DNA of 64,000 bases from an uncultured Candidatus Saccharibacteria bacterium (GCA_964585065.1 CAZPCB010000001.1:226866-290865); one strand, 5' to 3'. Shown: positions 12,601 to 37,951, numbered from the stretch's first letter. Notes: generated by a model from the sequence alone, not told the origin. Made by a program: numbers and translations.

Positions 12601-12606
12601 ATTATA

Positions 12607-15616: not shown

Positions 15617-15659
15617 TTGTTTACACCCCCCTTCTGTATATATTTCATATATATATATA

Positions 15660-16877: not shown

Positions 16878-16887
16878 ATTGTATATA

Positions 16888-17961: not shown

Positions 17962-17971
17962 ATATCTGTGT

Positions 17972-18352
17972 TTAAGATGTTGGTAAATACTTTTGTACCG
18001 TACGCATTACCTCAGTAGGAGTATAATTTGATTTTACAATATAATCAACTGCCCCAAGCTCAAAAGCTTGATTAATATCAGCCTGAGAAGATAAATTACT
18101 CAAGACCACTACAGGAATATCTTTAAGATTAGCTTGCTTTTTTATCCATTGCAATATATCAAATCCACTCACATCAGGAAGTATAAGGTCAAGAAGAATT
18201 AAACTAATTTGTTTTCCATTTTTAGCAAGAATATCCTTTACCTCAGGTTGATTAGAGGCGGTAAATACATTAAAACCTAATTCATCAATTTTTGTAGCAT
18301 ACATTTGTGTAATGAAACTATCATCCTCAATCAATAATATGTGATTCTTCAT
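17972..18352 (-). CDS. stand-alone response-regulator receiver (CheY/PilH-like)
   Basis: LLIEDD...LILLDLILPDVSGFDI receiver motifs; 126 aa; lies between pilT and pilB. Confidence 0.75.
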   Translation of the reverse strand: MKNHILLIEDDSFITQMYATKIDELGFNVFTASNQPEVKDILAKNGKQISLILLDLILPDVSGFDILQWIKKQANLKDIPVVVLSNLSSQADINQAFELGAVDYIVKSNYTPTEVMRTVQKYLPTS

Positions 18353-18409
18353 ATATATGTTTATTTACTCTTATTCTGTATTAATAATATCATATCTTTA
18401 TGATTTTGC

Positions 18410-20158
18410 CTATATCTCTATAGTTGTTAATAACTCTGGGAGAGAAAGATATCCCTGCAATACCTTTAATATACCATCTTGTTTTAGGGTAACATAATCA
18501 TGGGCTCGAAGATATTCAGAAACCTCATTTTCATTGAATTTTTTTTCTACAATTGCTTGTAATTCCTCTGTCATTACCACTACCTCAAAAATTGCCATTC
18601 TTCCTTTGAATCCACCCGAGCATTTAGCACAGCCCACAGGCGTGTATAATGTATCATAATTACCATTATATACTTCTTTGATATATTCGGGAGTTAATGT
18701 AGTCAAAGACTCTTGTATATATTCTCTTTCTTTTCCATCTAAGGGAACTGCTTGTTTACATTCCTCACATAATTTTCTTACTAATCGCTGTGCAATAACT
18801 ATTTGTAGTGAGGCAGATAACAAAAATGGCTCTACCCCCATATCAATAAGCCGAGGTAATGCTCCTGGAGCATCATTAGTATGTAGAGTTGAGAACACAA
18901 TATGCCCCGTTAAAGCTGATTGTACCGCAAGCCCTGCGGTTTCACCATCTCGGATTTCTCCTACCATAATAACATCTGGATCCTGCCTCAAAATTGATCT
19001 AAGTCCAGAAGCAAAGGTATAATTTATTTCTGGCTTTACCTGAGACTGATTAACTCCAGATAAATAGTATTCTATTGGATCCTCTAATGTCACAATATTA
19101 ATATCATCCGTATTAATTTGTGATAACAGAGTATAAACTGTAGTTGATTTACCCGATCCCGTTGGTCCTGTTAATAGAAGCATACCAAATGGTTTTTTGA
19201 TTGCTTCTTGAATCAAGTTTACTCGAGGACCAATAAATCCTAATTGCTCTAATGATCTAATACCGTCCGAAGTATCTAAAATTCTCAATACTACCTTTTC
19301 TCCATATTGGGTAGGGAAAGTCGATACACGAAAATCTACTTTTTTATCTTTATCTAAAATAGAAAATCTTCCATCCTGGGGCTTTCTTTGCTCATCAATT
19401 TTGAGATTTGATAAAATTTTAATACGAGCAACAACGGGAGAATGGGCTTCTTTTGGTAAAATCAAACTAGTATGTAATACTCCATCCACACGAAATCTTA
19501 CCCGTACCGATTCATCAGTTCCTTCAATATGTATATCTGATGCTCCTCCTTCTACAGCATTTCTAATAATAACAGATACCATTTTGATAATAGGAGCACT
19601 TTCTAAATTTTCTGTTGTAATACCTGTGGTATCTGGGAGTATTTGTTCTGCTTCATTTTTTTGATGAAATTCCTCAAGATTTTCTGTAACTGCATTTTTT
19701 AAAGTTCCTGTTCTTTTGAGAGTTCGTTTAATATCTGATTCTATTGCGACAAATAACTCAAAAGATATTTTTTTTTCTTGAAAAATAAACTTAAGAGCTT
19801 GTATAGCAGTATAATTTTGTGGGTCAGCAATAGCGATAGAAATAGTATTATTTTCTTGTGCAAAAGGAATTAAGGTATATCTTTGCATAATATTAACCGG
19901 TAAAATATCATATAATTCTTTTGGTATACTAATATTCTCTAAATCTATAAATTCTAATCCCAAAATTTGAGCATTTACTGTTATTAATTCTTTTTCCGTA
20001 AAATTTTGCTCGAGAAAGGCTTTAATTTCTGATTCTGTTATAGTATCAAAAGAAGCTATTGACTTAAATTTATCAGGAAATTCATTTTTCAACAATTCAA
20101 ATGTTTTTTTTAAATCTAATTGCATATTATAACTTAAAATAACTACTAATAGTATCAA
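18410..20158 (-). CDS. pilB: type IV pilus assembly ATPase PilB (GspE family)
   Basis: N-terminal T2SE_N-like domain; Walker A LLTGPTGSGKSTT; C-terminal tetracysteine. Confidence 0.9.
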   Translation of the reverse strand: MILLVVILSYNMQLDLKKTFELLKNEFPDKFKSIASFDTITESEIKAFLEQNFTEKELITVNAQILGLEFIDLENISIPKELYDILPVNIMQRYTLIPFAQENNTISIAIADPQNYTAIQALKFIFQEKKISFELFVAIESDIKRTLKRTGTLKNAVTENLEEFHQKNEAEQILPDTTGITTENLESAPIIKMVSVIIRNAVEGGASDIHIEGTDESVRVRFRVDGVLHTSLILPKEAHSPVVARIKILSNLKIDEQRKPQDGRFSILDKDKKVDFRVSTFPTQYGEKVVLRILDTSDGIRSLEQLGFIGPRVNLIQEAIKKPFGMLLLTGPTGSGKSTTVYTLLSQINTDDINIVTLEDPIEYYLSGVNQSQVKPEINYTFASGLRSILRQDPDVIMVGEIRDGETAGLAVQSALTGHIVFSTLHTNDAPGALPRLIDMGVEPFLLSASLQIVIAQRLVRKLCEECKQAVPLDGKEREYIQESLTTLTPEYIKEVYNGNYDTLYTPVGCAKCSGGFKGRMAIFEVVVMTEELQAIVEKKFNENEVSEYLRAHDYVTLKQDGILKVLQGYLSLPELLTTIEI

Positions 20159-20309
20159 AGCTAGGTGCTACTATATCGGTATCCCCAACAGATATATGAT
20201 TTAATATAATAGCAAATATTTGATATCCAAAATAGCCTACAGCTATAATACTAACTGATACTATAATGAATTTGTGATACCTTTCAATAATTTGAGATAT
20301 ATTTTTCAT
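20127..20309 (-). CDS. small membrane protein (hypothetical)
   Basis: 60 aa with a single TM helix, between pilB and pilO-like; overlaps the pilB start. Confidence 0.2.
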   Translation of the reverse strand: MKNISQIIERYHKFIIVSVSIIAVGYFGYQIFAIILNHISVGDTDIVAPSFDTISSYFKL

Positions 20310-20311
20310 AT

Positions 20312-20842
20312 TTATTTATAATATGTTATTGCATTAATAGTTCCCTCTATATTACCTAATCCTTTAGCAAAAGATAAGCTAACGGCATTCACCCCTATAT
20401 ATCGCTTTGATTGTGTTAATTTCTGTAAAAAAGTATATATTTCTCTTTTACCTCCAGTTATTCTTAATAAAATATTCACTGGCCTTAATGTATTAATAGA
20501 AGTATTATTGGTATCTAAGTTATTAGTATCTTTTATTAGTGAACCCTGCTCATCTACAGAGATGGAAGCTATTTCAATATTAGATTCTCTTGCAAATTGT
20601 GTAAATTCTGTTGTAATCGCGGTCTTATCCAGTGAATCTGGTGTGAATTCATTTATTCTTTTTGCCAATTCTGAGGGCGACTTTTGATCAGCAAATGATT
20701 GGGTAATTTGTGTTTTTTTCTGTAATTCCTTTACTCCAGAGAATTTACTTGTCAAAAAATCAGTATAAAAATTAGTTATTGTCCAAATCAAAGTAATAAA
20801 TATAATACAGAATGAAATGGATAAAAGGGTTTTTTGATTCAT
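20312..20842 (-). CDS. PilO-like pilus assembly protein
   Basis: Single N-terminal TM plus periplasmic domain; position downstream of pilM and pilN. Confidence 0.4.
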   Translation of the reverse strand: MNQKTLLSISFCIIFITLIWTITNFYTDFLTSKFSGVKELQKKTQITQSFADQKSPSELAKRINEFTPDSLDKTAITTEFTQFARESNIEIASISVDEQGSLIKDTNNLDTNNTSINTLRPVNILLRITGGKREIYTFLQKLTQSKRYIGVNAVSLSFAKGLGNIEGTINAITYYK

Positions 20843-20847
20843 ATCAT

Positions 20848-21441
20848 CTACTTTAACTTAATCAATATATCAAGACTAACTCCACTACCCTCAGAATTCT
20901 TCCTAATATCTGAGGAAGAAGCATCTATAACACCTTTAACCTCCTTTATCTTAGATATTTGAGAATTAGCATCATCAAAAGAAAGCGCTTGTGCTGAAAG
21001 AATAATAGTCTTTTTTTGTGTACTATATACCCAAGAACTTGTTTTAAACCCAGTAGTATATGTTGCTTCAATTTCTTTCATAATTTCAACTGGATCATAT
21101 GTTTGAGAAATCAATGTATTCACATTATACACTGTTTTTTCTAAATCATCTTTTGGATAATATACACTATTTCTTTCATTTAAATCTGCTAAAATTTGAT
21201 TATATTCATTCGTAGGCTTTATAATATAAACCCAATAAACAGCACCCAATACTCCTATGTATATAATTAATGTCAATATAAATCCAATAATATACCCCCG
21301 ATAAGGATGCTCCTCTTTAATAGTCACATATCCCTCTGAGCCTTTTTGTCTATTAGGAATAAAGCTAATATTTTCCATATTATTCGACATAATCTTTAAG
21401 TGAAATACCAATTGACAATACCAAATCATGCCAAATTGCAT
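20848..21441 (-). CDS. PilN-like pilus assembly protein
   Basis: Bitopic protein directly downstream of pilM. Confidence 0.45.
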   Translation of the reverse strand: MQFGMIWYCQLVFHLKIMSNNMENISFIPNRQKGSEGYVTIKEEHPYRGYIIGFILTLIIYIGVLGAVYWVYIIKPTNEYNQILADLNERNSVYYPKDDLEKTVYNVNTLISQTYDPVEIMKEIEATYTTGFKTSSWVYSTQKKTIILSAQALSFDDANSQISKIKEVKGVIDASSSDIRKNSEGSGVSLDILIKLK

Positions 21442-22450
21442 GCAGAACTTCCTTATCCTTCACCCCTTTAATGCTCAGATTAGAATAGGGTTCTGCAACA
21501 GTAATAGTAATTTTTTGACTTACTCCTAATTGATTATTAATAACTAAATCAACAAATTCTCGAATACCGTCCATTTTAGCAAAGCCACCAAGCAATACAA
21601 TATCTTGTATTTTTTCTTCATTATTATCTTGGAATTGGTGAATAATACGCAATACTTCATTTTCAAAAAAGCTCTTAATCCCAGATTGTATTAAGGCTGA
21701 TATTTCTGACTTAGGACCAGATATTCCATTATCTTTTTTGAGTTTTTCTGCTTCTATACTGGATATATTATGAGAAGATGAAATTTTATCCGTAATATGA
21801 TTCCCTCCAAAATCAAATGATTGTATTAATTGCAATTGATCTTCTGTATTAACAATACTTACCGTACTGGTTCTTGCCCCAATATCTACAACACATACTT
21901 GACTATTGGGCAAATCAATAGAACGAATAATAGAGAAAGCATCTAATTCAAATCCCTTAATCGTAATACCTAGGGCTTTACTTACTTCAATATACGTATT
22001 TACCACACTATTAGGAATGGCAATTACTAATACATTTAATTTATCTTTTTCCTTATTAGGCCCTAAATTCATCCAATCTAATTGCACGCTGGTTAAAGGA
22101 ACAGGAATATATTGTTTTGCTTCAAGTGGTACAGCTGTAGACAACTCTTCAAATGACATAAGAGGAAATTGAACAACTGCTGAAAAAGCTAAATATGAAG
22201 GGATTGCAATATATGCCTCCTTTATTTCCATTTTAGCAGCATTAAGCATAGCTTGTATAATGGTGGTAATCTGAGATACAGAAATAATATGTTCCCCGTT
22301 TTTCTCTTGAATAATATTATCTAAATCATCATCCCAAATACTATAATTAATCACGGATATTTTCCCTCCTTGTTTTTGAACTTCCGAAATTTTAATAGTT
22401 TGTGTACCAATATCAATACCAAACGAATTTTTTACTCCTAATCCTAACAT
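21380..22450 (-). CDS. pilM: type IV pilus assembly protein PilM (actin-like ATPase fold)
   Basis: FGIDIGTQTIKISEV N-terminal actin-like motif; 356 aa. Confidence 0.7.
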   Translation of the reverse strand: MLGLGVKNSFGIDIGTQTIKISEVQKQGGKISVINYSIWDDDLDNIIQEKNGEHIISVSQITTIIQAMLNAAKMEIKEAYIAIPSYLAFSAVVQFPLMSFEELSTAVPLEAKQYIPVPLTSVQLDWMNLGPNKEKDKLNVLVIAIPNSVVNTYIEVSKALGITIKGFELDAFSIIRSIDLPNSQVCVVDIGARTSTVSIVNTEDQLQLIQSFDFGGNHITDKISSSHNISSIEAEKLKKDNGISGPKSEISALIQSGIKSFFENEVLRIIHQFQDNNEEKIQDIVLLGGFAKMDGIREFVDLVINNQLGVSQKITITVAEPYSNLSIKGVKDKEVLHAIWHDLVLSIGISLKDYVE

Positions 22451-27073: not shown

Positions 27074-28360
27074 TTATTCTTTCCAATTCCAATCAGAATT
27101 AATATATTCAGATACTTGTTTCGATTTTGGCTTATAATCTAAATTAAATCCAAATCCTGCAATACCTGGCTGTTTTTGAATTTGAAAACTATATTGTTGA
27201 GTTTTGGGAATAGTATAATCGATGACAATATCCTTAGTACTATTAAAAGGAATATCTATTTGAAATCCTGCTACTTTTTTATTATATTCGCTATTATAGT
27301 CAATTTTGTCTTTTTCAATACCAGTAATAGTATTAATAAAAGCATTTTGTGGTAATAATATTCTACTATATGACTTATAATCATTATTGAGAGGTGAGGC
27401 AGTCTGAGCAGTATTAGTATATCGTATGGTAATTGTGGAGCATAATTTGTCCCCACAAGTATTAACTGTTTTACTAATATCTCGCTTCATATAATAATCA
27501 GTTTTGAGAGAACCTAAATTAGCATCTACTAACATAAAATAATCCCCCTCCCCATTATTCTCAATAGCCCCATCCCAATTCAAAGTCTCAACTTTATCTT
27601 GTACTTTTTGATCTGAGCTCCATAATAATAGTTGCTTTTGATTAGCCTGCTCTATAAGCATATTCCCAATTTTATATAATGTTTGAGGAGAGGCTTTGCG
27701 AATTCTCTTCTCTACTTCAACTGCTAAATTTTTAATAGGCTCTTTACGGTCAGCACGACTTATCCCCTTATCAATAAATCCAAAATTAAGTTCATATTGT
27801 ACAGATAATAATACATTATCGGCATTTAATTCTCCATCTATTCCCTCTACATTCACTGGCCCAATAATTTTTAATATTTCAGGGAGAACAGCAGCATTTA
27901 CTGCAATAATACCATTTATATTTTGACTTCCCCCCTCCAATTTATATAAATCAATCATTTGTTTTGCTGTAGTTGGAAAATCTGGAGACCAATTTCCATC
28001 TCTCATTTGTAATGTATCGACTCCTAGCATAATTTTTATAGGCTCAGGAGCATTAATACCAGGCTTTCCATAATCAAAGGCATTCGTATTATAAATAGTA
28101 TACTTTTTCACTTTTCCTTTACTCAAAGTAACTTCTGCAAAATTACCTACAAATCCCCCTGTTGGTCTTAATTCTAAGGTATTCTGGAATAATACTAAAT
28201 AGGTGACATCTCCCTGTTTTTGTATAGCCTGTACAAGAGCAATTTCTTGTCTATATTGAGACCAAATAATTCCCCAGATAATAAGACCTATACTTATTAT
28301 TATCAATAGTATAATACCAATTATGGTAAAAATTCTCTTTTTGGGAGAGACTTTTTTCAT
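27074..28360 (-). CDS. membrane-anchored DUF4012-like envelope protein
   Basis: N-terminal TM then VLFQNTLELRPTGGFVGNFAEV signature. Confidence 0.5.
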   Translation of the reverse strand: MKKVSPKKRIFTIIGIILLIIISIGLIIWGIIWSQYRQEIALVQAIQKQGDVTYLVLFQNTLELRPTGGFVGNFAEVTLSKGKVKKYTIYNTNAFDYGKPGINAPEPIKIMLGVDTLQMRDGNWSPDFPTTAKQMIDLYKLEGGSQNINGIIAVNAAVLPEILKIIGPVNVEGIDGELNADNVLLSVQYELNFGFIDKGISRADRKEPIKNLAVEVEKRIRKASPQTLYKIGNMLIEQANQKQLLLWSSDQKVQDKVETLNWDGAIENNGEGDYFMLVDANLGSLKTDYYMKRDISKTVNTCGDKLCSTITIRYTNTAQTASPLNNDYKSYSRILLPQNAFINTITGIEKDKIDYNSEYNKKVAGFQIDIPFNSTKDIVIDYTIPKTQQYSFQIQKQPGIAGFGFNLDYKPKSKQVSEYINSDWNWKE

Positions 28361-28365
28361 ATCTA

Positions 28366-29547
28366 TTAATATTTCAAAGCTGCCGTAACCTGAATACCAG
28401 CACCCCTATATAGACGAGAGTCTCTCTGATATACATTTTCAAGAGCTTTTATAATATGATTCCAAGAATAATGATACCGTATTTCCTCTTGTAATATGTC
28501 CGCAAGTTCCAAAGCTCCTCGATAATCCCCCAATACATGCTCTAATTGATGTTTGAGAGAAGCAATATTATTCACCTTTGCAATATGCCCAAGATCCCCC
28601 ACAATTTCAAGATTTTCGCGAATATCGGATACAATAACAGGAATTCCATAACTTCCTGCCTCCAAAAGAGAAATAGATAATCCCTCTGAAGATGATGGAA
28701 GAACATATATTGCTGCATTAGCAAATAATTGTTTTAATGTTCTGCCTAATTGATGACCGGTAAATATAATATTTTTATCTCCATCTGCTAAATCATGAAG
28801 ATATTGTTCATATTCTCTGGTATAAGAAGGTCCTCCCACAATAACAAGCTTTTTCCCATATTTATGAGCCATTTGCTGATACGCCTGTATCAAAATATGA
28901 GCATTTTTATGTTTAACTAGTCTTGCAATAAATACAATATAGCCTTGTTTTTTGAGACCAAATTTGGCTAATTCTGAATCAGAACTAATATGATTAAACA
29001 CGGTACCATTTGGTATATAAGTAGCCTTAATATCAAATTCTCGAGATATAAAATAGCGTAAACTCTTAGAAACTGTTACTACTTCATCAGCAAAATGACA
29101 TCCTGTCCAAGCCCCTAATTTTAACATTGACTTAGCAAAAAGATTCCATTTTCCATGATACCAATCAGCACTATGAAATGTAAATACCACCTTGGTATAT
29201 CTATGTCCAAATAGATATTTGATAGCAAATCCGAGGCGAGCAAATGGAGTTAATAAGGCGGGGCCCACTGAATTGATATGAAGTACATCCAAATCTGGGA
29301 TAAAAAAACTATTCCAAATAGAAGTAAATGTATGAGTAATAGCATCCAAACTTTTGGTGGCAATAGAAGGGGTTTCAATTACCTGTACCCCTTTATAATT
29401 CCCTTCAGGAGCATAGGATTTACGTGTATAAACAATAATATCATGGTTCCGTCGAGCAAGTCTCACTGCAATATTATCAACATAGTTCTCCACACCACCC
29501 CCAGCTGAGGCAGGAATACCTTTTTGACCTATAAAAGCAATTTTCAT
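28366..29547 (-). CDS. glycosyltransferase family 4 (GT-B)
   Basis: MKIAFIGQKGIPASAGGGVENYV N-terminus; C-terminal EGLSISLLEAGSYGIPVIVS motif. Confidence 0.7.
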   Translation of the reverse strand: MKIAFIGQKGIPASAGGGVENYVDNIAVRLARRNHDIIVYTRKSYAPEGNYKGVQVIETPSIATKSLDAITHTFTSIWNSFFIPDLDVLHINSVGPALLTPFARLGFAIKYLFGHRYTKVVFTFHSADWYHGKWNLFAKSMLKLGAWTGCHFADEVVTVSKSLRYFISREFDIKATYIPNGTVFNHISSDSELAKFGLKKQGYIVFIARLVKHKNAHILIQAYQQMAHKYGKKLVIVGGPSYTREYEQYLHDLADGDKNIIFTGHQLGRTLKQLFANAAIYVLPSSSEGLSISLLEAGSYGIPVIVSDIRENLEIVGDLGHIAKVNNIASLKHQLEHVLGDYRGALELADILQEEIRYHYSWNHIIKALENVYQRDSRLYRGAGIQVTAALKY

Positions 29548-29578
29548 GAAAATACTAATAGTAATCTAATTAATATAA

Positions 29579-29607
29579 ATTATAGCATATTTTGACTCAA
29601 ATGTCAA
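29579..29607 (-). promoter_or_regulatory. sigma70-type extended -10 promoter for the GT4 gene
   Basis: Minus strand TTGACA, 17 nt, atatgcTATAAT. Confidence 0.5.
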
Positions 29608-29674: not shown

Positions 29675-29866
29675 TTACCAAATGAGTCGAATACCTGTCA
29701 TAAATATATCAGCTCCAATCAAACCTGAGAGGAGAGATAAAATACTAAGCAGTACCTGAGACTGCTGAGGAATATTCTCTGACATAATATCTTCTTCGGC
29801 AATACTATGCTGAATGATTACAGCTACCAAAATAGATACAATCAGTAAGACTGGGTTGCGTCTCAT
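29675..29866 (-). CDS. small membrane protein (hypothetical; start chosen at the internal Met)
   Basis: 63 aa hydrophobic ORF followed by a hairpin plus T-run around 29625-29660; the upstream part of the 111 aa ORF overlaps the island terminator region. Confidence 0.2.
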   Translation of the reverse strand: MRRNPVLLIVSILVAVIIQHSIAEEDIMSENIPQQSQVLLSILSLLSGLIGADIFMTGIRLIW

Positions 29867-30023
29867 GAATCTAAAAGAGCAGATATAAAATCTATTATAG
29901 CCTATATTCTTACAAAATGAAAATCCCCAACTGCAAGCAGCTGGAGATATAGGGGTAAAACCAGAAATGGTCAAGGCGACTGCTCCCCGTGAGGGGTTAG
30001 TTGCTATCATTTTTGGTTTTACT

Positions 30024-31163
30024 TCAGAAGCCGAAGCGGAGCTTTACTGTTCCCCCAAACCCTGAGCGGGTATTGGAGTCGAGTCCCAGCACATAGGCTG
30101 GCACCACCTGAATAGCCGTATTGCGGCTGAGATTCAGGGTGATGGGGGCTCCGAGTTCAACTCGACTAGTGGAGTTATCACGGCCGAGGCCATAAAGAAC
30201 TCCCTTTGCCTGAAGCTGGACCTGCAGCTTCGAATTGGCATCCCCCACCAGATTAGGTGTGGTGACCTCGGGATAAAAATATCCTCCGTCAGTATTCACA
30301 CCCCCCTGGACATACAGATTCCAGGGATTCTTGGAGTTGCCGGGGCGAATACCGCCTTCGCCGAAGGCGTCATAGCCTCCATTGGCGAAATCGTATTCGC
30401 CACCTGCACCAATCCAAGGATTGGCGGAAGACTTGGGGTCCAGGCGATGCCGAATCCGGGCTCGGATACCGACATCAGTCTGAGGCTTATCCGACTTCCA
30501 TTCACCGGAATAAAGATCATCGGGGCTTTTCCAAGTCCCATTAGCATTATTCTGCTGGAAACGGACAAAGGGACCAGCATTCCACTCGGTAGTGGAAGAC
30601 CAGCCTCTCAGAGCCCCATAGATATCCAGCTTACTGGAATCATAGGAGCAAGTACCTCCCGGACCTGCTGGGCAAGTTCCCGAGCTTTGATAGCCGGTAA
30701 CTTGCATCAGGAAAGGTTTCCCCTTGGGAGCCAGCGTGACTCCAGCCTTGGAATTGATCTGGCTGGGAGTGCTACTGTACTCTGCCTCCCCCCTGATATT
30801 GGTGTTATTACCACCGAACAGGGAGGATTCTCCACCGCCCTTTTGAAAAGGGGTAACAACAGGTCCTGCAACCACAGGATTGACAGATTGTTGTGTCACA
30901 ACCTGAGTTACCGGCAAAACCGGTGGTGGTCCAGGTGGAGCCTGTGACATTTGCGGAACACTTCCAGCATTACGAGCCTCGGCAGCTTCACGCATGGCAC
31001 GAAGCTCAGTTGCTTGCTCTCGTGTGGAGAGTCTCCGAGGCATTTCTGCCTGGATACTGTTAACCGATTGAGGGACTGCAGCCTTCACTTCCGCCTTGAC
31101 ACCCATAGGGGCAAGTAGTGGAAGAGCGATTGCAAACATCCCCAAGATGTTACGATTTTTCAT
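30024..31163 (-). CDS. secreted beta-barrel outer-membrane-protein-like protein (GC-rich, codon usage foreign to host)
   Basis: Start MKNRNILGMFAIALPLLAPMGVKA signal peptide with AGGAG RBS 8 nt upstream; Pro-rich linker; C-terminal alternating hydrophobic strands ending ...GGTVKLRFGF with terminal Phe. Confidence 0.55.
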   Translation of the reverse strand: MKNRNILGMFAIALPLLAPMGVKAEVKAAVPQSVNSIQAEMPRRLSTREQATELRAMREAAEARNAGSVPQMSQAPPGPPPVLPVTQVVTQQSVNPVVAGPVVTPFQKGGGESSLFGGNNTNIRGEAEYSSTPSQINSKAGVTLAPKGKPFLMQVTGYQSSGTCPAGPGGTCSYDSSKLDIYGALRGWSSTTEWNAGPFVRFQQNNANGTWKSPDDLYSGEWKSDKPQTDVGIRARIRHRLDPKSSANPWIGAGGEYDFANGGYDAFGEGGIRPGNSKNPWNLYVQGGVNTDGGYFYPEVTTPNLVGDANSKLQVQLQAKGVLYGLGRDNSTSRVELGAPITLNLSRNTAIQVVPAYVLGLDSNTRSGFGGTVKLRFGF

Positions 31164-31191
31164 CGTAAAACTCCTGGTAAAGAACTCTCGC

Positions 31192-31220
31192 ATACTAGCA
31201 TAAAAACACGATTTTGTCAA
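31192..31220 (-). promoter_or_regulatory. near-consensus sigma70 promoter for the OMP-like gene
   Basis: Minus strand TTGACA, 17 nt (aaatcgtgtttttatgc), TAGTAT; the ORF-track N-terminal extension runs through it. Confidence 0.6.
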
Positions 31221-31252
31221 TAGCTAACAACATCTGTTATAGTGTTTGGGGA

Positions 31253-31285
31253 GAAATAAAAAAGCCCCCACAAATTGTGAGGGCT
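31253..31285 (-). terminator. rho-independent terminator
   Basis: Minus strand gccctcaca-attt-gtgggggc then ttttttattt. Confidence 0.5.
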
Positions 31286-31301
31286 GATATGAGGAATCTG
31301 A

Positions 31302-32300
31302 TCAGCGATGAAAACGGACCAGGCTCCAGCCTTGTTGAACCCAGGGCTGACCACCTTGATTAATCACCTTGACCCGGGTGTCACGTCCATCAGGAAGAGA
31401 TCCCCATTGAATCCAGGCAATCTTGCCATCGGGAAGCTTGGCACCAAAGGTGCCAGCATCGGTAGCGGAGGAGTTCAGCTGAACTCCAGCTTGGAATGCT
31501 ACTCCTGGCTGAATTGCGATGAATTCGCGTCCTACCGACATACCGCCCTCCCGAGGGAGGAAGAAATATTGCGCCCCGGGAATGGGGGTGGTGGAGAGAG
31601 TGATACGATCATTGCTGACCGTGATCACTGCCGGGAACCTGAGCCCAGAATCTGGCAGACGCCAGATAGGCTCCCTCACCGCCGAGGCGGGAGTCGAGGA
31701 TAAAATCCTCGAGGTAGCCAAGTCCCCACCCGTGAAGATGGGGCCAAAGAATACTCCCCTGCTGGTGGGGACATACCCTTTTGAGGTATGCCCCCACCCA
31801 GCAACTTCCCAGCCTGGTGAACTTACAAGAGTAAGACCACCAGTACCAGCCCCCTTAGGCCCATTGTCGAGCCATTGCCAGCCACCATCAGATTTGACAC
31901 TGATAAGGCTGAAGGCAAGGGGTCCATTGGACCGGAAGTTGATACTCTCCCCATAAGCTCCACAAGGGAGCGCAGAGAGATTTTTCACCTCCTGGTACAA
32001 AGGCACCAGGCAGAAACGCCGAGGCGTACCTGCTGTGGGCCCAGCACCAGATCTTCCAGCAGACCCAAGGGCCTTTTGGTTAATCAGTCTATTAGCCTGA
32101 GGAGCCCAGTCCGAGGGACGGGACCCAGGCTTGGCTGTCACCAACCCTGCCGAGGCTTTGACCTCAGAAGGACTGATAATCACCCTAACCACCCGATTGG
32201 AATTGGGGGTGCTGATTTGGAGCCTCAAAGGCAATGTCTCCGCCTTTCCAGCCGAAGCCAGTAAAACAGAGCCAAGGAAGATGGGAATGAACTTTTTCAT
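31302..32300 (-). CDS. secreted Gly-rich protein of unknown function (GC-rich island gene 2)
   Basis: Start MKKFIPIFLGSVLLASAGKA signal peptide; GC-rich codons; own promoter and terminator. Confidence 0.5.
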   Translation of the reverse strand: MKKFIPIFLGSVLLASAGKAETLPLRLQISTPNSNRVVRVIISPSEVKASAGLVTAKPGSRPSDWAPQANRLINQKALGSAGRSGAGPTAGTPRRFCLVPLYQEVKNLSALPCGAYGESINFRSNGPLAFSLISVKSDGGWQWLDNGPKGAGTGGLTLVSSPGWEVAGWGHTSKGYVPTSRGVFFGPIFTGGDLATSRILSSTPASAVREPIWRLPDSGLRFPAVITVSNDRITLSTTPIPGAQYFFLPREGGMSVGREFIAIQPGVAFQAGVQLNSSATDAGTFGAKLPDGKIAWIQWGSLPDGRDTRVKVINQGGQPWVQQGWSLVRFHR

Positions 32301-32326
32301 TAGGATAAACCTATGAAGACGCATAA

Positions 32327-32355
32327 ATAATAGCATATTTAAAGAAAAAAGTCAA
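32327..32355 (-). promoter_or_regulatory. near-consensus sigma70 promoter for island gene 2
   Basis: Minus strand TTGACT, 17 nt, atatgcTATTAT. Confidence 0.55.
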
Positions 32356-32375
32356 GTATTGACAACATTTTAATA

Positions 32376-32406
32376 TATAAAAAAGGCCCCTGCATTGCAG
32401 AGGCTT
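32376..32406 (-). terminator. rho-independent terminator
   Basis: Minus strand gcctctgc-aa-tgcaggggc then ttttt. Confidence 0.45.
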
Positions 32407-32425
32407 ATTGGACTAAGCTGACACC

Positions 32426-32740
32426 TCAGCGAGGAGATGTCGTCGCTCGAGGAATCTCGAGCAGGCCGTTGCCGGCTGAATCCCTGAGGGATTTCGCCCC
32501 CGGGAACAGAGTGTTCGGTACCCAATTACCGGGTGACACCTCCACCCCATCGGTCACCCAGCACCCATTGCGGGCACACAGGGACTGAGCTTCGGAGACC
32601 GAGGTCCAGGCCCTCGTGGTGGACCCGATGGGTCCGACGGCGACCCTGCCGCTGAGGGACTGAGCCGTGGCGGGAGCCACGGTCAGAAGTGTGGTGCCTG
32701 CCAGCAGAGCGCCGGCGATGAACTTGGTAAGAGTTTTCAT
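32426..32740 (-). CDS. small secreted Cys-containing protein (GC-rich island gene 3)
   Basis: MKTLTKFIAGALLAGTTLLTVAPATAQS signal peptide; about 62% GC; CARNGC motif. Confidence 0.5.
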   Translation of the reverse strand: MKTLTKFIAGALLAGTTLLTVAPATAQSLSGRVAVGPIGSTTRAWTSVSEAQSLCARNGCWVTDGVEVSPGNWVPNTLFPGAKSLRDSAGNGLLEIPRATTSPR

Positions 32741-32765
32741 GGTTTATCCACGAAACGACTTAGCG

Positions 32766-32794
32766 ACTATAGCATATTATATCTTATTTGTCAA
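32766..32794 (-). promoter_or_regulatory. near-consensus sigma70 promoter for island gene 3
   Basis: Minus strand TTGACA, 17 nt, atatgcTATAGT. Confidence 0.55.
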
Positions 32795-32856
32795 GATATA
32801 AAAACAAAAAAATACCGGCAGCTATTGCTACCGGCTTGAGATTGGAAAATAATGTA

Positions 32857-33252
32857 TCAGCAATTCCCGATTGCAAAGCCACCATCTCGCGTCCATTTTT
32901 TGAAGAGGCAACCTCCATTATTATTCCATCCTGAATTAGGCTGTCTCCAATGTTGATTATTATTCCATCCTGGGTTTTGCCACTGATTATTCCAGTTTCT
33001 ATTATTATTCCAATTCCCATTATTTCTAAAAATATGAGTCCTGGTGGATGCATTGAATCCTTGATATCCATCACAAGGTAATCCTTGTGATTCCACAATA
33101 GGACAAATAATAGTGCGTGGACGAATATCGGAGCGAATTATCACCCCATTATATTCAATACTTTCAAAAGATTCACCCCACCATTGAGCTGTTGCTGCCA
33201 TTGGGAATAGAACTGAAATTGCTGTTACAAAAGGGAGAAAGAGCTTTTTCAT
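32857..33252 (-). CDS. secreted low-complexity Asn/Trp-repeat protein
   Basis: Signal peptide MKKLFLPFVTAISVLFPMAATAQ; C-terminal NWNNNRNWNNQWQNPGWNNNQHW repeats; host-like codon usage. Confidence 0.5.
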   Translation of the reverse strand: MKKLFLPFVTAISVLFPMAATAQWWGESFESIEYNGVIIRSDIRPRTIICPIVESQGLPCDGYQGFNASTRTHIFRNNGNWNNNRNWNNQWQNPGWNNNQHWRQPNSGWNNNGGCLFKKWTRDGGFAIGNC

Positions 33253-33314: not shown

Positions 33315-34382
33315 TCATTTACTCTGAGATAAAGCTTTAGCTAATATTTTAGCATAACTATGTTGTTGAGTGTATTTTATAATATTTTTTGCAAACTTAT
33401 TCATATCATTTTCATCTATATGAATTAATGTTGTATATAAACTTTCTTCATTATCTTGTATTACTAATCCTAAATTATATTCTTGTATATCCTTACTTAT
33501 ACTAGGATATGGAGTAGTAATAATTGGGAGACCTAATGAAAGATAATCTTTAATTTTCCCTGGATCAGCACAAGATATTTCTAATGTATTCTCATATAAA
33601 GCTATTCCAAAACCAATATGATGCTTCACTACTAATTCTTGTATTTGCTGTTCATCTTGAAATCCATATAAAGTAATATTAGAGCTTGCAGTATTATGAA
33701 TTATTTTCTCAATTTCTTGATACAAATTACCCTTACCTATAAGATGTAGATGATAGTCTGGAGATAATTGTGCAAAAACATTTACCAATAATCGTAAATT
33801 ATGACCTTCTTTAAAATTACCCATAAAGAGTATTTGTCTTGAATCGGGTTTATAGGGAGCAATTTTTTGAGTATGAACCCCTAATGGTACAGTAAATACC
33901 AAAGATTTATTAATATGTTTTTTTTCATGTTCTATAATAATTTGTGAACTCAAAGTCCATACCATATTTGCCCGCTTATATACTGAGGCCTCTATTTTGT
34001 TAATAATATAGCGTGATGAAAGTCTATTAGAATAAAAATAATAATCATAGGCATAATATATTATAGGGATATCCTTAAAATAATCTCGAAGTGAAAGAGC
34101 AATATATCCCTCAAACCAATCTATAGCCAAAATATAATCATAATCTGCATCAAATTGAGATGTCATATATTTCCGTATACTATGATAATGTCCCCAATAA
34201 TATGCTATCTTGGATGTATATGATGAAGTCGATATATTCCCTATATGAGTAGTATAATAATTTTGAGGATATTGGAGGGAAGGGAAAAGGAGATAATGTA
34301 CAGTATGTCCCAAATCTTGAAGACCTTTAATAATATCCTCTGATTTAGCTATATGTTGTCGACCTAATACTAAAATTTTCAT
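33315..34382 (-). CDS. glycosyltransferase (GT-B fold)
   Basis: 355 aa, GT1-like C-terminal region; sits in the polysaccharide cluster. Confidence 0.5.
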   Translation of the reverse strand: MKILVLGRQHIAKSEDIIKGLQDLGHTVHYLLFPSLQYPQNYYTTHIGNISTSSYTSKIAYYWGHYHSIRKYMTSQFDADYDYILAIDWFEGYIALSLRDYFKDIPIIYYAYDYYFYSNRLSSRYIINKIEASVYKRANMVWTLSSQIIIEHEKKHINKSLVFTVPLGVHTQKIAPYKPDSRQILFMGNFKEGHNLRLLVNVFAQLSPDYHLHLIGKGNLYQEIEKIIHNTASSNITLYGFQDEQQIQELVVKHHIGFGIALYENTLEISCADPGKIKDYLSLGLPIITTPYPSISKDIQEYNLGLVIQDNEESLYTTLIHIDENDMNKFAKNIIKYTQQHSYAKILAKALSQSK

Positions 34383-35773
34383 ATACTCGTATCTGATTTA
34401 TTATCTAAACTCTGATAATGTAATACTGCCCCCAATAAAAGGAATAATATCCACATTAATACTGTTCCACGAAGTAAATTATCCCAAAAACTCACTATAT
34501 AAATCACCGTCATCAAGGATGCTAAATATAAAATATAGATATTTTTACCCTGTATATAGCGATAATATAATACTCCTAGAATATTAAGTATTAATATTCC
34601 ATATATCATAAGGCCAATCAATCCTTGTTCTAGGAATATTTTGATATAATCATTATGTACTTCAAGAGAACCTCTAAATGTACCTCGTGTTTGCTCAACC
34701 ATAATTTGAGAACTTCCTGTACCAAAACCTATTATAGGGGACTCCCAGGCTTTTTCATACATATCTGTCCACATAGTTAATCTCCATATCACCGAATCAC
34801 TGGGGTCGGCATTAAATAAGCCTGATACTCTATTAATCACAGGTAAAGTAGTTAGTGGCGGTAAATCTAAAACAGTAGGGGGAGATAAAATCTGATATAT
34901 AGATAATACTAAAGCAATAAATCCTAATCCTATTGATGTAATAATTAAACTTTTACGTGGATATTTAATTAATCCTATTAAGGCAATTAACATGATAAGC
35001 CCAAACCAGGCACCTCGTGTAAAAGTAACCAAAAGAATAATAATATATAATAAGCCAATACTTCCTAATAATCTCTTTTCATCTATTGAAATAGTAGTAT
35101 TCTTATTCAGCCATATACTCCCAATTAATGCAAGGATAATAATAGAATAATACGCAAGTACATTAGGATGTCCAAATGTACCTGCAATACGATTTTCAAA
35201 CCCAGGATTAGTATATAATCCTGTGCCAGAAAAATATTCAATATATGCAACGAATAGTGGAATAATACTCCCATATATAATAACTCTCATTATATTCATT
35301 AATTTATTTTGATGTGAAACATATATCCACCCCACAAAATAGAGCATAATAAAACTCAATACTCTCACTGTTTCCTGTAATCCGACAAACAATGAAATCC
35401 CTGTAAAACTAAAAATAATATATACAAGTACAATCAGTCCTAAACTCCACATTAAAGGGATATGTGAATTATATACTACTATTCGGTGTTTATATATATA
35501 TATGAATGACAATACTATTATCATTATAGCAATAGTAGATCCCAAATTAATAATAGGAAAATCAGGTAATGTAAAAGGGCTAATAATATCTATAGCTGGC
35601 CGTAAAAAAATCAAAGTAAATAAACCTACTTCTAAAGAAATAGATAATATGAATACAAATACCCAACTAAGAATAACTGCCGCAAATATGATACCAGGAG
35701 CATTAAGTAAAATACATATAAGTAAACTTATAGCCCCAAGTCCAATAATTATATTAGAACTTATCTGAGTCAT
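34379..35773 (-). CDS. O-antigen ligase / polymerase-like polytopic membrane protein (Wzy_C family)
   Basis: More than 10 TM helices with a large periplasmic loop ...GTFGHPNVLAYY... Confidence 0.55.
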   Translation of the reverse strand: MTQISSNIIIGLGAISLLICILLNAPGIIFAAVILSWVFVFILSISLEVGLFTLIFLRPAIDIISPFTLPDFPIINLGSTIAIMIIVLSFIYIYKHRIVVYNSHIPLMWSLGLIVLVYIIFSFTGISLFVGLQETVRVLSFIMLYFVGWIYVSHQNKLMNIMRVIIYGSIIPLFVAYIEYFSGTGLYTNPGFENRIAGTFGHPNVLAYYSIIILALIGSIWLNKNTTISIDEKRLLGSIGLLYIIILLVTFTRGAWFGLIMLIALIGLIKYPRKSLIITSIGLGFIALVLSIYQILSPPTVLDLPPLTTLPVINRVSGLFNADPSDSVIWRLTMWTDMYEKAWESPIIGFGTGSSQIMVEQTRGTFRGSLEVHNDYIKIFLEQGLIGLMIYGILILNILGVLYYRYIQGKNIYILYLASLMTVIYIVSFWDNLLRGTVLMWILFLLLGAVLHYQSLDNKSDTSI

Positions 35774-36506
35774 ACTCTGTATCTGGACTTATAGATGGGG
35801 GTGGAGTTAAATCAATAATAGGGTTTTCAGCTATTTCATATTCATCAGGAAGTTGTGGGGACACAAAATTATCAACACCAAAATCATATGATATACTTTG
35901 ATCTCGCCTTGCAATAACATATCCAATCGCAATAGAAAATCCTAATAGAGCTGATCCCAAGAGATTAACCAAAATATCTGGCCGCCCAACTCCATCATAC
36001 AAAGATGATTGATTTACAACTTGAATAGTACCTGTTTCTCCAAATAATACCTTTGCCCGTTCAATTAATTTATCCACTACGACTTTATTCATAGTAAGGG
36101 CGAGTTCAGAGGAGACATCATAGGTTGATACTGAGACAAAACCAGTTCCCTTGGCCTCAACAATAATATTACGAGCAAATGCGGTTCTTCTATCCTTCAG
36201 ATTTTCAGGAAATGCATTCTTGATATCAACATTATCAGCAGTAACACTTGCAAAAAATGTATCGGTATATACCAAATTAACTAATAAATCTACTTTTGAA
36301 TTAATTGATCTTTGTGCCGTATAGGAATCAATTTCTGGATTTACTTTCTGAATAACAACAAGTTGAGACTCTCCCCTATATTGTTTTGGTATAATAAGAG
36401 TAATACCCACTCCGACTAATACAAAAATAAGTGTTATAATAATAACCGTATTAAATTTTCTTTGTATTTTGGATATAATATCACCTAAAGTAAGATTGGA
36501 CTCCAT
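35754..36506 (-). CDS. polysaccharide chain-length determinant (Wzz/CpsC-like)
   Basis: N- and C-terminal TM helices flanking a periplasmic domain; 250 aa like Gram-positive CpsC/YwqC. Confidence 0.5.
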   Translation of the reverse strand: MESNLTLGDIISKIQRKFNTVIIITLIFVLVGVGITLIIPKQYRGESQLVVIQKVNPEIDSYTAQRSINSKVDLLVNLVYTDTFFASVTADNVDIKNAFPENLKDRRTAFARNIIVEAKGTGFVSVSTYDVSSELALTMNKVVVDKLIERAKVLFGETGTIQVVNQSSLYDGVGRPDILVNLLGSALLGFSIAIGYVIARRDQSISYDFGVDNFVSPQLPDEYEIAENPIIDLTPPPSISPDTEYDSDKF

Positions 36507-36907: not shown

Positions 36908-37951
36908 ATGATTCCCTCCCTACCCGATATTCAAGCAGAATATGAATTATTATCTACCCAAATGTCTGACCCTCAGATATTTGGTAGTCCTGATTTTATT
37001 ACTATTTCCAAAAGACATACTGAGCTTGGAAATCATATTACATTATTACAAAGTATTGAGACAATAAAATCTCAATTAGCTGAGGCTAAAATTCTCCTTA
37101 GTGATCCGGAGATGAAGGAAATTGCCGAGGAGGAAATCACTCGCCTAGAATTAGAATTAACTGAAAAAGAGAATATTTGGAATGATATTATATCCCCCAA
37201 AGAAAGTTTTGCTGATGAAATTATTATAGAAATTCGAGCAGGTGCTGGAGGAGATGAGGCTGGTTTATTTGCTTTAGAATTATTCAAAGCCTATATTAAT
37301 TTTCTTCAAAGAAATGGAGCTAAAACAGAAATATTATCCCTATCAGAGAATTCAGTAGGGGGAATAAAAGAAATTGTTATTGAAGCTCGTGGTGCAGAGG
37401 TATACAAATATCTTCAATATGAAAGTGGAGTTCATCGAGTACAAAGAGTACCCAAAACAGAAAAAGCTGGTCGTGTACATACTTCTACTATTACTGTTGC
37501 CGTATTACCTATTGCCAAAGAAGTTGATATAGATATTAATCCAAATGATTTGAAAATTGATGTATTCCGTTCTAGTGGACCAGGAGGACAAAGTGTTAAT
37601 ACTACTGACTCAGCTGTTCGTATTACTCATATTCCCACCAATGTAGTAGTTTCCTGCCAAGATGAAAAATCTCAGCTCAAAAATAAAGAAAAGGCAATGA
37701 AAATTTTGCGTACCCGTATTCTAGATAGAATGAAGCAAGAACAAGCAGAAAAAGAGGCTTCTTTTCGCAAAAATCAAATTGGAACTGGAGATAGATCAGA
37801 GAAAATCCGTACCTATAATTTCCCTCAAGACCGTATAACTGATCATAGAATTAAGCAAAATTTCTCCAATATAGAAGGAATATTATTAGGTGATTTTAGC
37901 CCTATTTTACAAGCATTCGATGACTATCAAAGAAATAATACAACAGAGTAA
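36908..37951 (+). CDS. prfA: peptide chain release factor 1
   Basis: GGQ motif (SSGPGGQSVNTTDSAVRITHIPT) and RF1-type PxT tripeptide (PKT). Confidence 0.9.
   Translation: MIPSLPDIQAEYELLSTQMSDPQIFGSPDFITISKRHTELGNHITLLQSIETIKSQLAEAKILLSDPEMKEIAEEEITRLELELTEKENIWNDIISPKESFADEIIIEIRAGAGGDEAGLFALELFKAYINFLQRNGAKTEILSLSENSVGGIKEIVIEARGAEVYKYLQYESGVHRVQRVPKTEKAGRVHTSTITVAVLPIAKEVDIDINPNDLKIDVFRSSGPGGQSVNTTDSAVRITHIPTNVVVSCQDEKSQLKNKEKAMKILRTRILDRMKQEQAEKEASFRKNQIGTGDRSEKIRTYNFPQDRITDHRIKQNFSNIEGILLGDFSPILQAFDDYQRNNTTE

Follow-up and report, generated by a model that had tools for sequence, protein, structure and literature searches.

A GC-rich island in an AT-rich genome

Why should a tiny freshwater bacterium of the Paceibacteria (CPR), whose AT-rich genome has a GC content of about 33%, hold three adjacent minus-strand genes at 53-64% GC? 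The genes, termed g1, g2 and g3, lie at 30.0-32.75 kb of the window, i.e., the whole 64-kb stretch of DNA that was analysed, and have GC3 values of 0.51-0.71, against 0.13-0.27 for all other long ORFs of the window. GC1 and GC2 are likewise elevated in all three. Profiled in steps of 300 nt, GC is 0.53-0.59 inside the ORFs, dips to about 0.45 in the two spacers and falls to 0.25-0.38 on both flanks, while every other kilobase of the window is at or below 0.37; no strong GC skew is seen across the window. The compositional jump claimed in a preliminary description of this DNA is thus borne out by the GC profile and by GC3, and the ORF coordinates, the signal-peptide-like N-termini of the three genes and the long spurious antisense ORFs are all present as it described. 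The predicted features of the island and its surroundings are as follows.

33315-36506, minus strand: other side of the variable block, with a second GT (33315-34382), Wzy_C (34379-35773) and Wzz (35754-36506)
32857-33252, minus strand: s131, small secreted N/W/Q-rich protein with signal peptide and four Cys; intermediate composition, GC 0.39, GC3 0.29
32814-32835, minus strand: terminator-like hairpin and T-run after s131, intrinsic type
32766-32794, minus strand: g3 promoter, TTGACA, 17 nt, TG-n-TATAGT; 45-nt promoter motif family D1
32426-32740, minus strand: g3, 104-aa secreted orphan, signal peptide (...ATAQS), two Cys; GC 0.64, GC3 0.71
32386-32404, minus strand: g3 terminator, hairpin and T-run, conserved in five lineages
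32327-32355, minus strand: g2 promoter, TTGACT, 17 nt, TG-n-TATTAT; the -35 box and TATGCTA do not vary between lineages
31302-32300, minus strand: g2, 332-aa secreted orphan, G/W-rich, predicted β-rich; GC 0.55, GC3 0.54; hairpin-dense CDS
31263-31285, minus strand: g2 terminator; stem sequence varies by lineage, hairpin and T-run always retained
31192-31220, minus strand: g1 promoter, TTGACA, 17 nt, TG-n-TAGTAT
30024-31163, minus strand: g1, 379 aa; GC 0.53, GC3 0.51; hairpin-dense CDS
29923-30012, minus strand: conserved element 3′ of the g1 stop, CCCCTCACGGGG hairpin, then the g1 terminator (29948-29923)
29675-29866, minus strand: s63, small membrane protein of 63 aa, confined to the window's subclade; own signals are a weak promoter-like site (29923-29894) and a terminator (29662-29634)
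27074-29607, minus strand: conserved flank, with the GT4 promoter (29607-29579), GT4 glycosyltransferase (28366-29547) and DUF4012 (27074-28360)

Transcription units and encoded proteins

The best minus-strand promoters returned by the scanner (17-nt spacer, extended -10 TG) lie precisely in the spacers that precede g3, g2, g1 and GT4, and terminator-like hairpins follow s131, g3, g2, g1 and s63. All lineages retain these promoter and terminator elements, and g1 also has a ribosome-binding site, AGGAG, 8 nt before its ATG at 31163. The arrangement identifies three predicted monocistronic units, or four with s131, all of them having a strong promoter of host type and ending in an intrinsic terminator, in agreement with the earlier report of AT-rich spacers carrying host-style signals.

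The g1 product is modelled as a tethered, OMP-like β-barrel. In a model built from 29 sequences, a signal peptide (MKNRNILGMFAIALPLLAPMGVKA/E...) is followed by a conserved short helix (LRAMREAAEARN), a variable Pro/Ala-rich linker and a closed antiparallel OMP-type β-barrel with an even number of strands, namely 14. The protein ends in ...KLRFGF, and nearly all homologues end in F, with a few in L. Searches of Pfam, NCBIfam and the PDB returned no sequence match to any family, described OMP families included, and neither an SLH nor an OmpA-like anchor domain was detected, which sets g1 apart from known 14-strand barrels (OmpG, FadL/TodX, CymA, PorV) and from the tethered OmpM/SlpA proteins. 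In the case of g2, the AF2 model was unusable and the β-rich nature is a prediction. The s131 family, which has no match in Pfam or NCBIfam, is represented in every cassette type. Altogether, the view that these are three genuine secreted-protein genes with a likely surface or envelope role is right. The absence of an outer membrane has been proposed for Patescibacteria, the phylum of this host (PMC12102498).

A clade-specific, serotype-like variable locus

The island junctions are identical in at least 13 independent assemblies (JGI, ENA, Logan, GTDB; at least 8 samples or projects), so that a chimeric assembly is excluded. The initial judgement that the mosaic is accounted for neither by a chimera nor by a simple block transfer was right. 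Among 5.8 billion proteins, and among 1.84 billion representatives scanned exhaustively with profiles, homologues number 32 for g1, 21 for g2 (all at least 74% identical) and 10 for g3, all in the same clade and the same slot; no homologue that could point to a donor lineage was found outside this Paceibacteria clade in either collection. The profile search returned five clusters, of which four belong to the family, each one examined lying in the slot, and one is spurious. Every g1-family member sits directly upstream of the GT4 and DUF4012 pair, and a cassette is present at the slot in all relatives, including one whose GT4 is only 57% identical. The preliminary description held that the island interrupts the locus and asked whether syntenic relatives lack it between the GT4 and glycosyltransferase genes; in this clade it interrupts nothing, since no relative is without a cassette. 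No flanking repeats were found apart from the shared promoter motif, no integrase occurs among the neighbouring genes, and no tRNA is adjacent, the nearest lying about 5 kb off, beyond RecG. Rfam returns only two tRNAs at the gathering threshold and, at E <= 1, no credible match within 29.4-33.4 kb. The locus shares with classical genomic islands a sharp compositional anomaly and atypical codon usage, but differs in having no donor, mobility genes, att-like repeats or patchy presence in the clade and databases searched, and in showing equilibrium instead of amelioration.

Pfam assigns the neighbouring genes to DUF4012, GT4, a second GT, Wzy_C and Wzz. Genome comparisons show that alternative cassettes are swapped between conserved flanks in near-identical genomes, as in a serotype locus. 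L008 (type A) and L009/L010 (type B) have RecG proteins of 99-100% identity, and for L007 (A) and L012/L013 (B) the figure is 98-100%; between L008 and L009/L010, as between L007/L092 and L012/L013, the flanks are 95-100% identical and the cassettes differ. In the former comparison g1 identity is 25-27%; in the latter g1 is mosaic, with best local matches of 44-65%, and in both the cassette types have unrelated partner genes. Intragenic module exchange is seen at the locus together with cassette exchange. The Wzy allele co-varies with cassette type (44% identity from one type to the other, 72-73% among type-B members of different clades) yet remains AT-rich: Wzy and the second GT (GTb) have GC3 values of 0.15-0.20 within the exchanged block. 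Like Wzy-dependent O-antigen and capsule loci, the region combines Wzz, Wzy_C and glycosyltransferases with conserved flanks and an allele distribution incongruent with the flank phylogeny; unlike them, its block adds monocistronic GC-rich secreted-protein genes, and its sugar genes are AT-rich. Classical O-antigen clusters typically have a lower GC content than their own genome. A GC-rich surface-antigen locus with recombination-based variation in an AT-rich genome is known from Borrelia vls. The two share a GC content far above that of the genome and tied to such variation, but here there is no strong GC skew and variation occurs between genomes, not within a clone; moreover, no silent donor cassettes, i.e., no paralogous DNA or protein fragments, are present within the 64-kb window.

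Composition at equilibrium

Across diverged type-A orthologues, dN/dS is 0.12-0.29 (g2 0.15-0.25, g3 0.16-0.29), a substitution pattern that marks g1, g2 and g3 as genuine genes kept by purifying selection. Among type-A pairs, dS rises to 1.0-1.4 in the most diverged, with synonymous sites near saturation. At dS 0.4-1.4, GC3 is nevertheless 0.50-0.73 in every lineage, and type-B genes, only 27% identical, have the same GC3 as type A. Polarised substitutions are balanced, both overall (19 W>S vs 17 S>W) and at third positions (10 vs 10), where 83% S>W, or about 5:1, would be expected (p = 7e-4). C3 persists in 51-62% of comparisons for g1 and g2 and in 8-17% for GT4. GC3 is thus stationary at 0.5-0.7 across lineages, not ameliorating.

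Hairpin density of the coding sequences

What is new here is that the island CDSs are predicted to carry about three times more local hairpins, and to be about 3.5 sd more stable, than synonymous permutations of themselves. When MFE values are compared with those of synonymous-codon permutations, all seven folding windows of the island CDSs have z scores of -1.8 to -6.0, against -1.9 to +1.5, with a mean near 0, for 17 flank windows. In a set of 44 windows (17 genes, 7 genomes), the sense strand has a mean z of -3.47 and the antisense strand one of -2.59, a difference of 0.88 z units (Wilcoxon p = 9e-5). Scores below -2 are reached by 37 of these 44 windows but by only 1 of 48 GC-matched control windows from GC-rich Patescibacteria genes, whose mean z is 0.02 (p = 2e-17). 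With the pairing span capped at 40 nt, z is -8.7 and -7.7, and perfect 6-bp hairpins exceed permuted expectation (15 vs 4.7, 12 vs 3.9 and 7 vs 1.2). The excess was not found in L25, L9, the pilins or other secreted host genes, and it is kept in the g1 relative of L091 (mean z -2.1) although GC3 there equals that of its host. The predicted hairpin pattern recurs beyond this clade: in 27 windows from non-homologous GC-rich secreted-protein genes of distant AT-rich Patescibacteria, the mean z is -2.18 (p = 1e-8 vs controls). As regards the evolution of the stems, the apparent compensatory-pair excess in g2 and g1 is equalled by the GT4 negative control, and paired third positions show no significant gain in conservation over unpaired ones (p = 0.31 and 0.16); one-sided stem changes are enriched in the G-C to G-U type (53/143 vs 4/33, p = 0.007).

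Coding RNA that folds far better than sequence-order-randomised, encoding-preserving controls also occurs, as genome-scale ordered RNA structure (GORS), in persistent RNA viruses (PMC3950689, PMC7642675). The present case differs in that it concerns a few chromosomal bacterial genes and not a viral genome, comes with a 20-point GC excess and is dominated by short local hairpins. In 'superfolder' mRNA design, greater double-strandedness guards mRNA from hydrolysis and nucleases (PMC7457604).

Origin of the high GC content

A block import from a high-GC, probably diderm, donor, left unameliorated and with promoters evolved in the spacers, would account for the fact that all codon positions and amino-acid usage resemble a genome of about 55% GC (ATA 0.00, TTA 0.03, CTG 0.35), and for the diderm-type features of g1, its OMP barrel and terminal Phe. 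Neutral spacers would indeed ameliorate and readily yield promoters. However, in the collections searched the homologues are confined to one clade and one slot, signs of mobility are lacking, GC3 is unchanged over large synonymous distances with balanced substitutions, and the excess of hairpins over synonymous permutations is left unexplained. The horizontal acquisition proposed in the preliminary description is not supported by these observations; clade-only families and stationary GC3 largely refute a recent import, an ancient transfer is conceivable, and we regard a foreign origin as improbable overall. A role of the hairpins at the DNA level, as cruciforms or single-strand hairpins in recombination, cassette exchange or DNA uptake, with the high GC content serving this role instead of the mRNA, is similarly unlikely. 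On the antisense strand, too, folding is far more stable than in shuffles (28 of 44 windows below -2), the locus undergoes cassette and intragenic exchange, and perfect palindromes occur in it, among them the 18-nt GGAGTTCAGCTGAACTCC. Yet the sense strand is the more structured of the two, also in alifold consensus energy (-274 vs -192 kcal/mol), G-C to G-U changes keep pairing only in the RNA sense, and the hairpin-dense stretch matches the CDSs, not the recombination breakpoints, with Wzy and GTb AT-rich in the swapped block.

The same exchange and mosaicism might suggest that GC-biased gene conversion at a recombination hotspot lifted the GC content of the cassette, but the co-exchanged Wzy and second GT, like the spacers, stayed AT-rich, gene conversion would not order synonymous sites into hairpins and, to our knowledge, +35 points of GC3 lie far beyond reported effects of recombination in bacteria; this reading is very improbable. 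Translational selection, by which very highly expressed genes would prefer GC-ending optimal codons, has even less to recommend it. Strong promoters and terminators suggest high expression, and island codon usage favours TTC and ATC. However, TAC, AAC, GAC and CAC are scarcely raised, G-ending and four-fold C/G codons are, and GC1 and GC2 rise as well. Expression-linked codon bias, which would have made the anomaly a trait of highly expressed host genes at large, is excluded because the ribosomal proteins L25 and L9, the pilins and RF1, all highly expressed genes of the window, have GC3 values of 0.17-0.25, and translational selection is effectively refuted by the ribosomal-protein genes. Least probable of all is an artefact, whether an assembly chimera or structured ncRNA genes with spurious ORFs. 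GC-rich DNA does yield long chance ORFs, and this RNA folds unusually well, but the shared junctions, the lack of an Rfam match, low in-frame dN/dS, signal peptides, the confident β-barrel model and conserved protein lengths refute it.

We give about an even chance to the interpretation that the genes form a resident, clade-specific secreted envelope-protein module whose high GC is kept together with selection for structured transcripts. The module occupies the variable middle part of a Wzy-type polysaccharide locus in a freshwater Paceibacteria (CPR) genus. Its high GC would not be a donor's fingerprint but would be held because selection keeps the transcripts densely base-paired and stable stems consist of G-C pairs. 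The most likely outcome would be long-lived, nuclease-resistant mRNAs, by which a ribosome-poor cell could make exported proteins in abundance. The gene products would be exported by Sec, and the g1 barrel could serve as a pore or anchor, with its Pro/Ala linker holding it at a distance from the cell. Phage or host specificity may maintain the diversity of cassettes through frequency-dependent selection.

It is conceivable, but doubtful, that g1 is a tethered porin that an outer-membrane-less epibiont plants into the outer membrane of a diderm host and that the structured mRNAs form a general class. The porin would then tap nutrients or dock the cell, with g2, g3 and s131 as accessories and the cassettes tracking host range. 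In a still more radical and purely speculative version, the nuclease-resistant RNA, or the DNA, would itself be delivered into the host and expressed there; the host's Sec and BAM machineries would fit the proteins. If the porin reading holds, 'long-life' mRNAs would be an undescribed general class for host-interaction proteins across AT-rich Patescibacteria, and such genes could be found from sequence alone.

A compositional island with ancestral control regions

The three GC-rich secreted-protein genes g1, g2 and g3 form a compositional island that is unique in the window. GC content is 0.53-0.59 within their ORFs (300-nt windows), about 0.45 where the two spacers separate them and 0.25-0.38 on either side, and every other kilobase of the 64 kb stays at or below 0.37. 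The third-position GC (GC3) of the three genes stands against 0.13-0.27 in about 60 other long ORFs, and their GC1 and GC2 are raised as well. The sharp step put forward in the preliminary description is confirmed by sliding GC and GC3, and the long spurious antisense ORFs that it mentioned are indeed found in the island.

Genes of the island and the small adjoining gene s131
30024-31163, minus strand: g1, GC3 0.51
31302-32300, minus strand: g2, GC3 0.54
32426-32740, minus strand: g3, GC3 0.71
32857-33252: s131, secreted, N/W/Q-rich, with NWNN-type repeats and 4 Cys

The host-style promoters and terminators described for the spacers are where they were said to be. The best minus-strand matches of a promoter scan (17-nt spacer, extended -10 TG) fall exactly in the spacers 5′ of g3, g2, g1 and GT4, and terminator-like hairpins follow s131, g3, g2, g1 and s63, another small adjoining gene. 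Around the island, repeats are confined to one family, the promoter motif ATATGCTATAAT, which is also present at the GT4 and Wzz promoters. The -35 and extended -10 elements and the terminator hairpin are kept in all lineages; stem sequences vary by lineage, while a hairpin plus T-run is always retained. Therefore, the mosaic of GC-rich coding sequences and AT-rich control regions is ancestral to the clade.

Directly 3′ of the g1 stop (29950-30012, minus strand) lies a ~60-nt element that contains a CCCCTCACGGGG hairpin and can be read as a pseudo-ORF, 'MIATNPSRGAVALTISGFT'. Its sequence hardly differs between the window, L007, L012 and L013, irrespective of cassette type, and the clade-2 genomes L003, L004, L008 and L009 carry a different, analogous element at the same site (ACTCCCCCTTGGAGG..GGGAGT). 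Possible identities for this element are a small RNA, a processing site and a recombination junction. The window's island contains no homopolymer phase-variation tract of at least 7 nt. C7-C10 tracts, absent from the window, occur in relatives just 3′ of stop codons or in cassette spacers (L008 at 8716 and 11046; L009 at 4603 and 5945; L004 at 8718; L012 at 8141) and may be slippage-prone.

Contigs from JGI, ENA, Logan and GTDB assemblies repeat the order Wzz-Wzy-GT-[cassette]-GT4-DUF4012-RecG together with the GC step. This agreement of independent assemblies rules out a chimera, and the case made against one in the preliminary description holds. An Rfam scan of the window returned two tRNAs only and no credible match in the island, and rRNA or a known ncRNA was rejected as the source of the high GC. 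In GTDB records, from freshwater-lake MAGs, the organism bears the name Candidatus Paceibacteria / Parcubacteria, and the remaining window genes (type IV pilins, PilM, T2SSE ATPase, DUF4012) are consistent with such a host. Among the loci L014-L085, many GTDB records with a Patescibacteria-type GT4-DUF4012 and 28-50% GC bear the title 'uncultured Gammaproteobacteria' or 'Bdellovibrionales', which looks unreliable. The window also holds a large type IV pilus cluster of ordinary AT-rich composition (12100-22450), with several pilin-like genes (MKKGFTLAEL...), a prepilin-peptidase-like gene, PilM and T2SSE/PilB-type ATPases.

Long residence in a single slot

A search of 5.8 billion proteins returned 32 homologues of g1, 21 of g2 and 10 of g3, and an exhaustive search of 1.84 billion representatives with the g1 profile returned five clusters. 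One cluster was treated as spurious, since P0066 (1952 aa, ~15 near-identical repeats of ~126 aa) scored only through summed weak repeat matches. Neither search found a homologue outside the clade. Every homologue whose context was examined occupies the same slot, including the most distant, L091 (GT4 57% identical to that of the window), and a check of the remotest members and the largest clusters for a GC-rich genomic context led each time to this CPR slot. Border repeats, att sites and silent cassettes were not found in the 64-kb window.

The island proteins are under purifying selection and about as conserved as their housekeeping flanks in L003, L004 and L008 (g1 66-85%, g2 78-82%, RecG 75-79%). 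Synonymous divergence in the island is 0.4-1.4 and GC3 is equal in all lineages, even in the alternative, type-B genes, although their g1 is only 27% identical. By a rough outgroup polarisation, the substitutions that separate the window from its closest relative are balanced (19 W>S and 17 S>W), and the 10:10 ratio at third positions departs from the 83% S>W predicted under unopposed host bias (p = 7e-4). In g1 and g2, a third-position C is kept in 51-62% of comparisons between lineages, vs 8-17% in GT4. Mutation in bacteria is generally GC>AT-biased (PMC2936529), so some force keeps the GC of the island high. The acquisition from a high-GC donor proposed in the preliminary description is not supported; the confinement of homologues to one clade and slot and this compositional equilibrium speak against a recent import. 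Altogether, the cassette of secreted envelope-protein genes is long-resident and polymorphic.

Cassette exchange in a serotype-like slot

The slot between the second GT and GT4-DUF4012 has two main architectures, type A and type B, and a third arrangement in L095.

Cassette arrangements and g1 N-termini
Type A: s131-g3-g2-g1
Type B: GC-rich ~270-aa protein, s131-like protein, GC-rich ~130-aa protein, divergent g1
L095, 8858-11077: s131-like gene, one GC-rich 122-aa gene and g1, without g2
Window, 30980-31163: g1 N-terminus
L007, 2508-2700: g1 N-terminus
L009, 4818-5000: g1 N-terminus
L012, 8390-8600: g1 N-terminus

The partner proteins of types A and B have no detectable homology. Cassettes are exchanged between otherwise close genomes: RecG is 99-100% identical between L008 (type A) and L009/L010 (type B), and 98-100% between L007/L092 (type A) and L012/L013 (type B). 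Wzy is 44% identical across types vs 72-73% within type B, across clades. Within type A, the relationships of g1, g2 and g3 are incongruent with those of the flanks, and the window and L007 share flanks 92-94% identical vs only 65% for g1. The two kinds of signal-peptide/tether module of g1 (MKNRNILG...GVKAE and MTLRKF...ERPASIR...) each occur with either barrel type, and this implies intragenic recombination in g1. The g1 helix LRAMREAAEARN hardly varies between types and is a possible docking motif.

Apart from the barrel, s131 is the sole component found in every cassette type, with an intermediate GC3 of 0.29-0.34. Short direct repeats in tandem, at a spacing of 39-45 nt (32917-33012), code for its NWNN-type repeats, and homologues elsewhere end in a conserved VYQ[DN]K..R[IV]LCN that the copy in the window lacks.

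Hairpin-dense coding sequences

Folding-energy (MFE) z-scores in 300-nt coding windows, more negative values meaning greater stability, were used to ask if selection on RNA structure might keep GC high. Synonymous-codon permutations keep protein and codon usage fixed, and dinucleotide shuffles served as a second control. All 7 island windows are over-structured (z -1.8 to -5.3 vs shuffles, -2.0 to -6.0 vs permutations), while the 17 flank windows lie between -1.9 and +1.5. Orthologues and the non-homologous type-B genes replicate this excess: 37 of 44 island-type windows have z < -2 vs 1 of 48 in GC-matched control genes from Patescibacteria loci (56-61% GC; z 0.02 ± 1.15; p = 2e-17). GC-richness accompanies a strong, replicated and control-tested excess of local secondary structure. 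The g1 of L095 is less GC-rich (GC3 0.45), yet over-structured (mean z -2.4). The g1 relative in L091 has a host-like GC3 of 0.36 (43% GC genome) with a mean z of -2.1 and flanks near 0, so structure follows the gene family even without a GC anomaly.

The signal arises from short local hairpins. With the pairing span limited to 40 nt, whole-CDS z is -8.7 for g1 and -7.7 for g2, and perfect 6-bp hairpins number 15 vs 4.7, 12 vs 3.9 and 7 vs 1.2 in GC-rich coding sequences. There is no such excess in L25, L9, the pilins, RF1, PilM or two other exported host proteins, and the island hairpins share no common motif. A perfect 18-nt palindrome, GGAGTTCAGCTGAACTCC, lies inside g2 (31470-31487), and 5 of the 6 other lineages preserve its hairpin.

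RNAalifold gives g2 and g1 structures with about twice as many compensatory pairs as shuffles have. Covariation was dropped as proof of conserved helices, since the same pipeline produced a comparable 'significant' excess for GT4, a gene that lacks any folding excess. Third positions paired in window-predicted stems are not significantly more conserved in other lineages than those in loops. Of 14 hairpins defined in the window, about 9 are found in most lineages, chiefly via sequence conservation, and one-sided pair-preserving changes are the only class enriched relative to GT4 (53/143 vs 4/33, p = 0.007). Taken together, these results therefore favour generic structuredness over a fixed fold. 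Lone strongly negative windows occur in ordinary genes, at the RF1 5′ end (36908-37207) and in the GT4 controls of L080 and L095 (z -3.6, -4.8 and -3.5), and may be local regulatory structures or chance outliers.

What could hold the GC content up

We infer that island transcripts would be selected for dense pairing, which would demand and preserve G-C at all codon positions. Such selection would explain the stationary GC3, the end of the GC-rich stretch at coding-sequence boundaries and the unaffected AT-rich Wzy and GT genes of the same exchanged block. The likely benefit would be that the mRNAs of exported proteins made in abundance stay functional for long or resist nucleases. Designed mRNAs are stabilised on the principle of double-strandedness (PMC7457604), and whole-sequence structure comparable to that of the island coding RNAs is known from persistent RNA viruses (PMC3950689, PMC7642675).

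GC-biased gene conversion is an unlikely source of the high GC; the main argument against it is that the Wzy and GT genes of the same exchanged block stay AT-rich. Translational selection was rejected: ribosomal-protein and pilin genes of the window have ordinary GC3, so they do not show the expression-linked bias that the preliminary description named as its refutation, and TAC, AAC, GAC and CAC are barely raised in island codon usage. That the hairpins act at the DNA level is a live rival because the antisense strand is structured too (mean z -2.59). The sense strand reaches -3.47 (44 windows, 17 genes, 7 genomes; paired Wilcoxon p = 9e-5), and the g2 consensus energy is -274 kcal/mol in sense vs -192 in antisense.

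If selection for dense pairing is the true reading, a sharp GC island with foreign-looking codons can be an old resident feature held by selection on nucleic-acid structure, not evidence of transfer, and composition-based HGT calls in CPR genomes would mislabel exactly those surface genes that are most interesting. A signal peptide combined with high GC3 and an excess of local hairpins beside GT4-DUF4012 would then form a testable signature, with which candidate proteins of the envelope or of host interaction could be picked out in uncultured Patescibacteria. No description of the phenomenon was found in a literature search on CPR genes that are GC-rich or structured and on OMP barrels in these bacteria. 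The cassette is best compared with serotype-like surface loci and structure-selected coding RNA.

A predicted barrel and recurrence in distant Patescibacteria

To our knowledge, the mechanisms of attachment and nutrient uptake in Patescibacteria are largely unknown. The g1 product is confidently modelled as an OMP-type β-barrel; a PDB sequence search with g1 and g2 gave no match, and the AF2 model of g2 was unusable (pLDDT 42). Patescibacteria have been proposed to be without an outer membrane (PMC12102498), and such a barrel in a CPR bacterium raises the question of whether its site is the cell's own envelope or the membrane of a host. One may speculate that the long flexible tether of g1 would permit insertion into the outer membrane of a partner cell. 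The probable surface or envelope role first argued for the island is upheld.

Genes of raised GC3 on an AT-rich background are also present in 9 of 77 more distant GT4-anchored Patescibacteria loci, upstream of GT4 in all nine. RNA genes were found in none of the 8 raised-GC3 stretches scanned, and the ninth, in L085, has clear protein ORFs. Most of these genes start with a signal peptide or lipobox, and the domains that can be recognised in them (InlB B-repeat, dockerin, LysM, Ig-like) belong to the adhesion or surface type. Their coding windows are likewise over-structured, with a mean z of -2.18 (p = 1e-8 vs controls).
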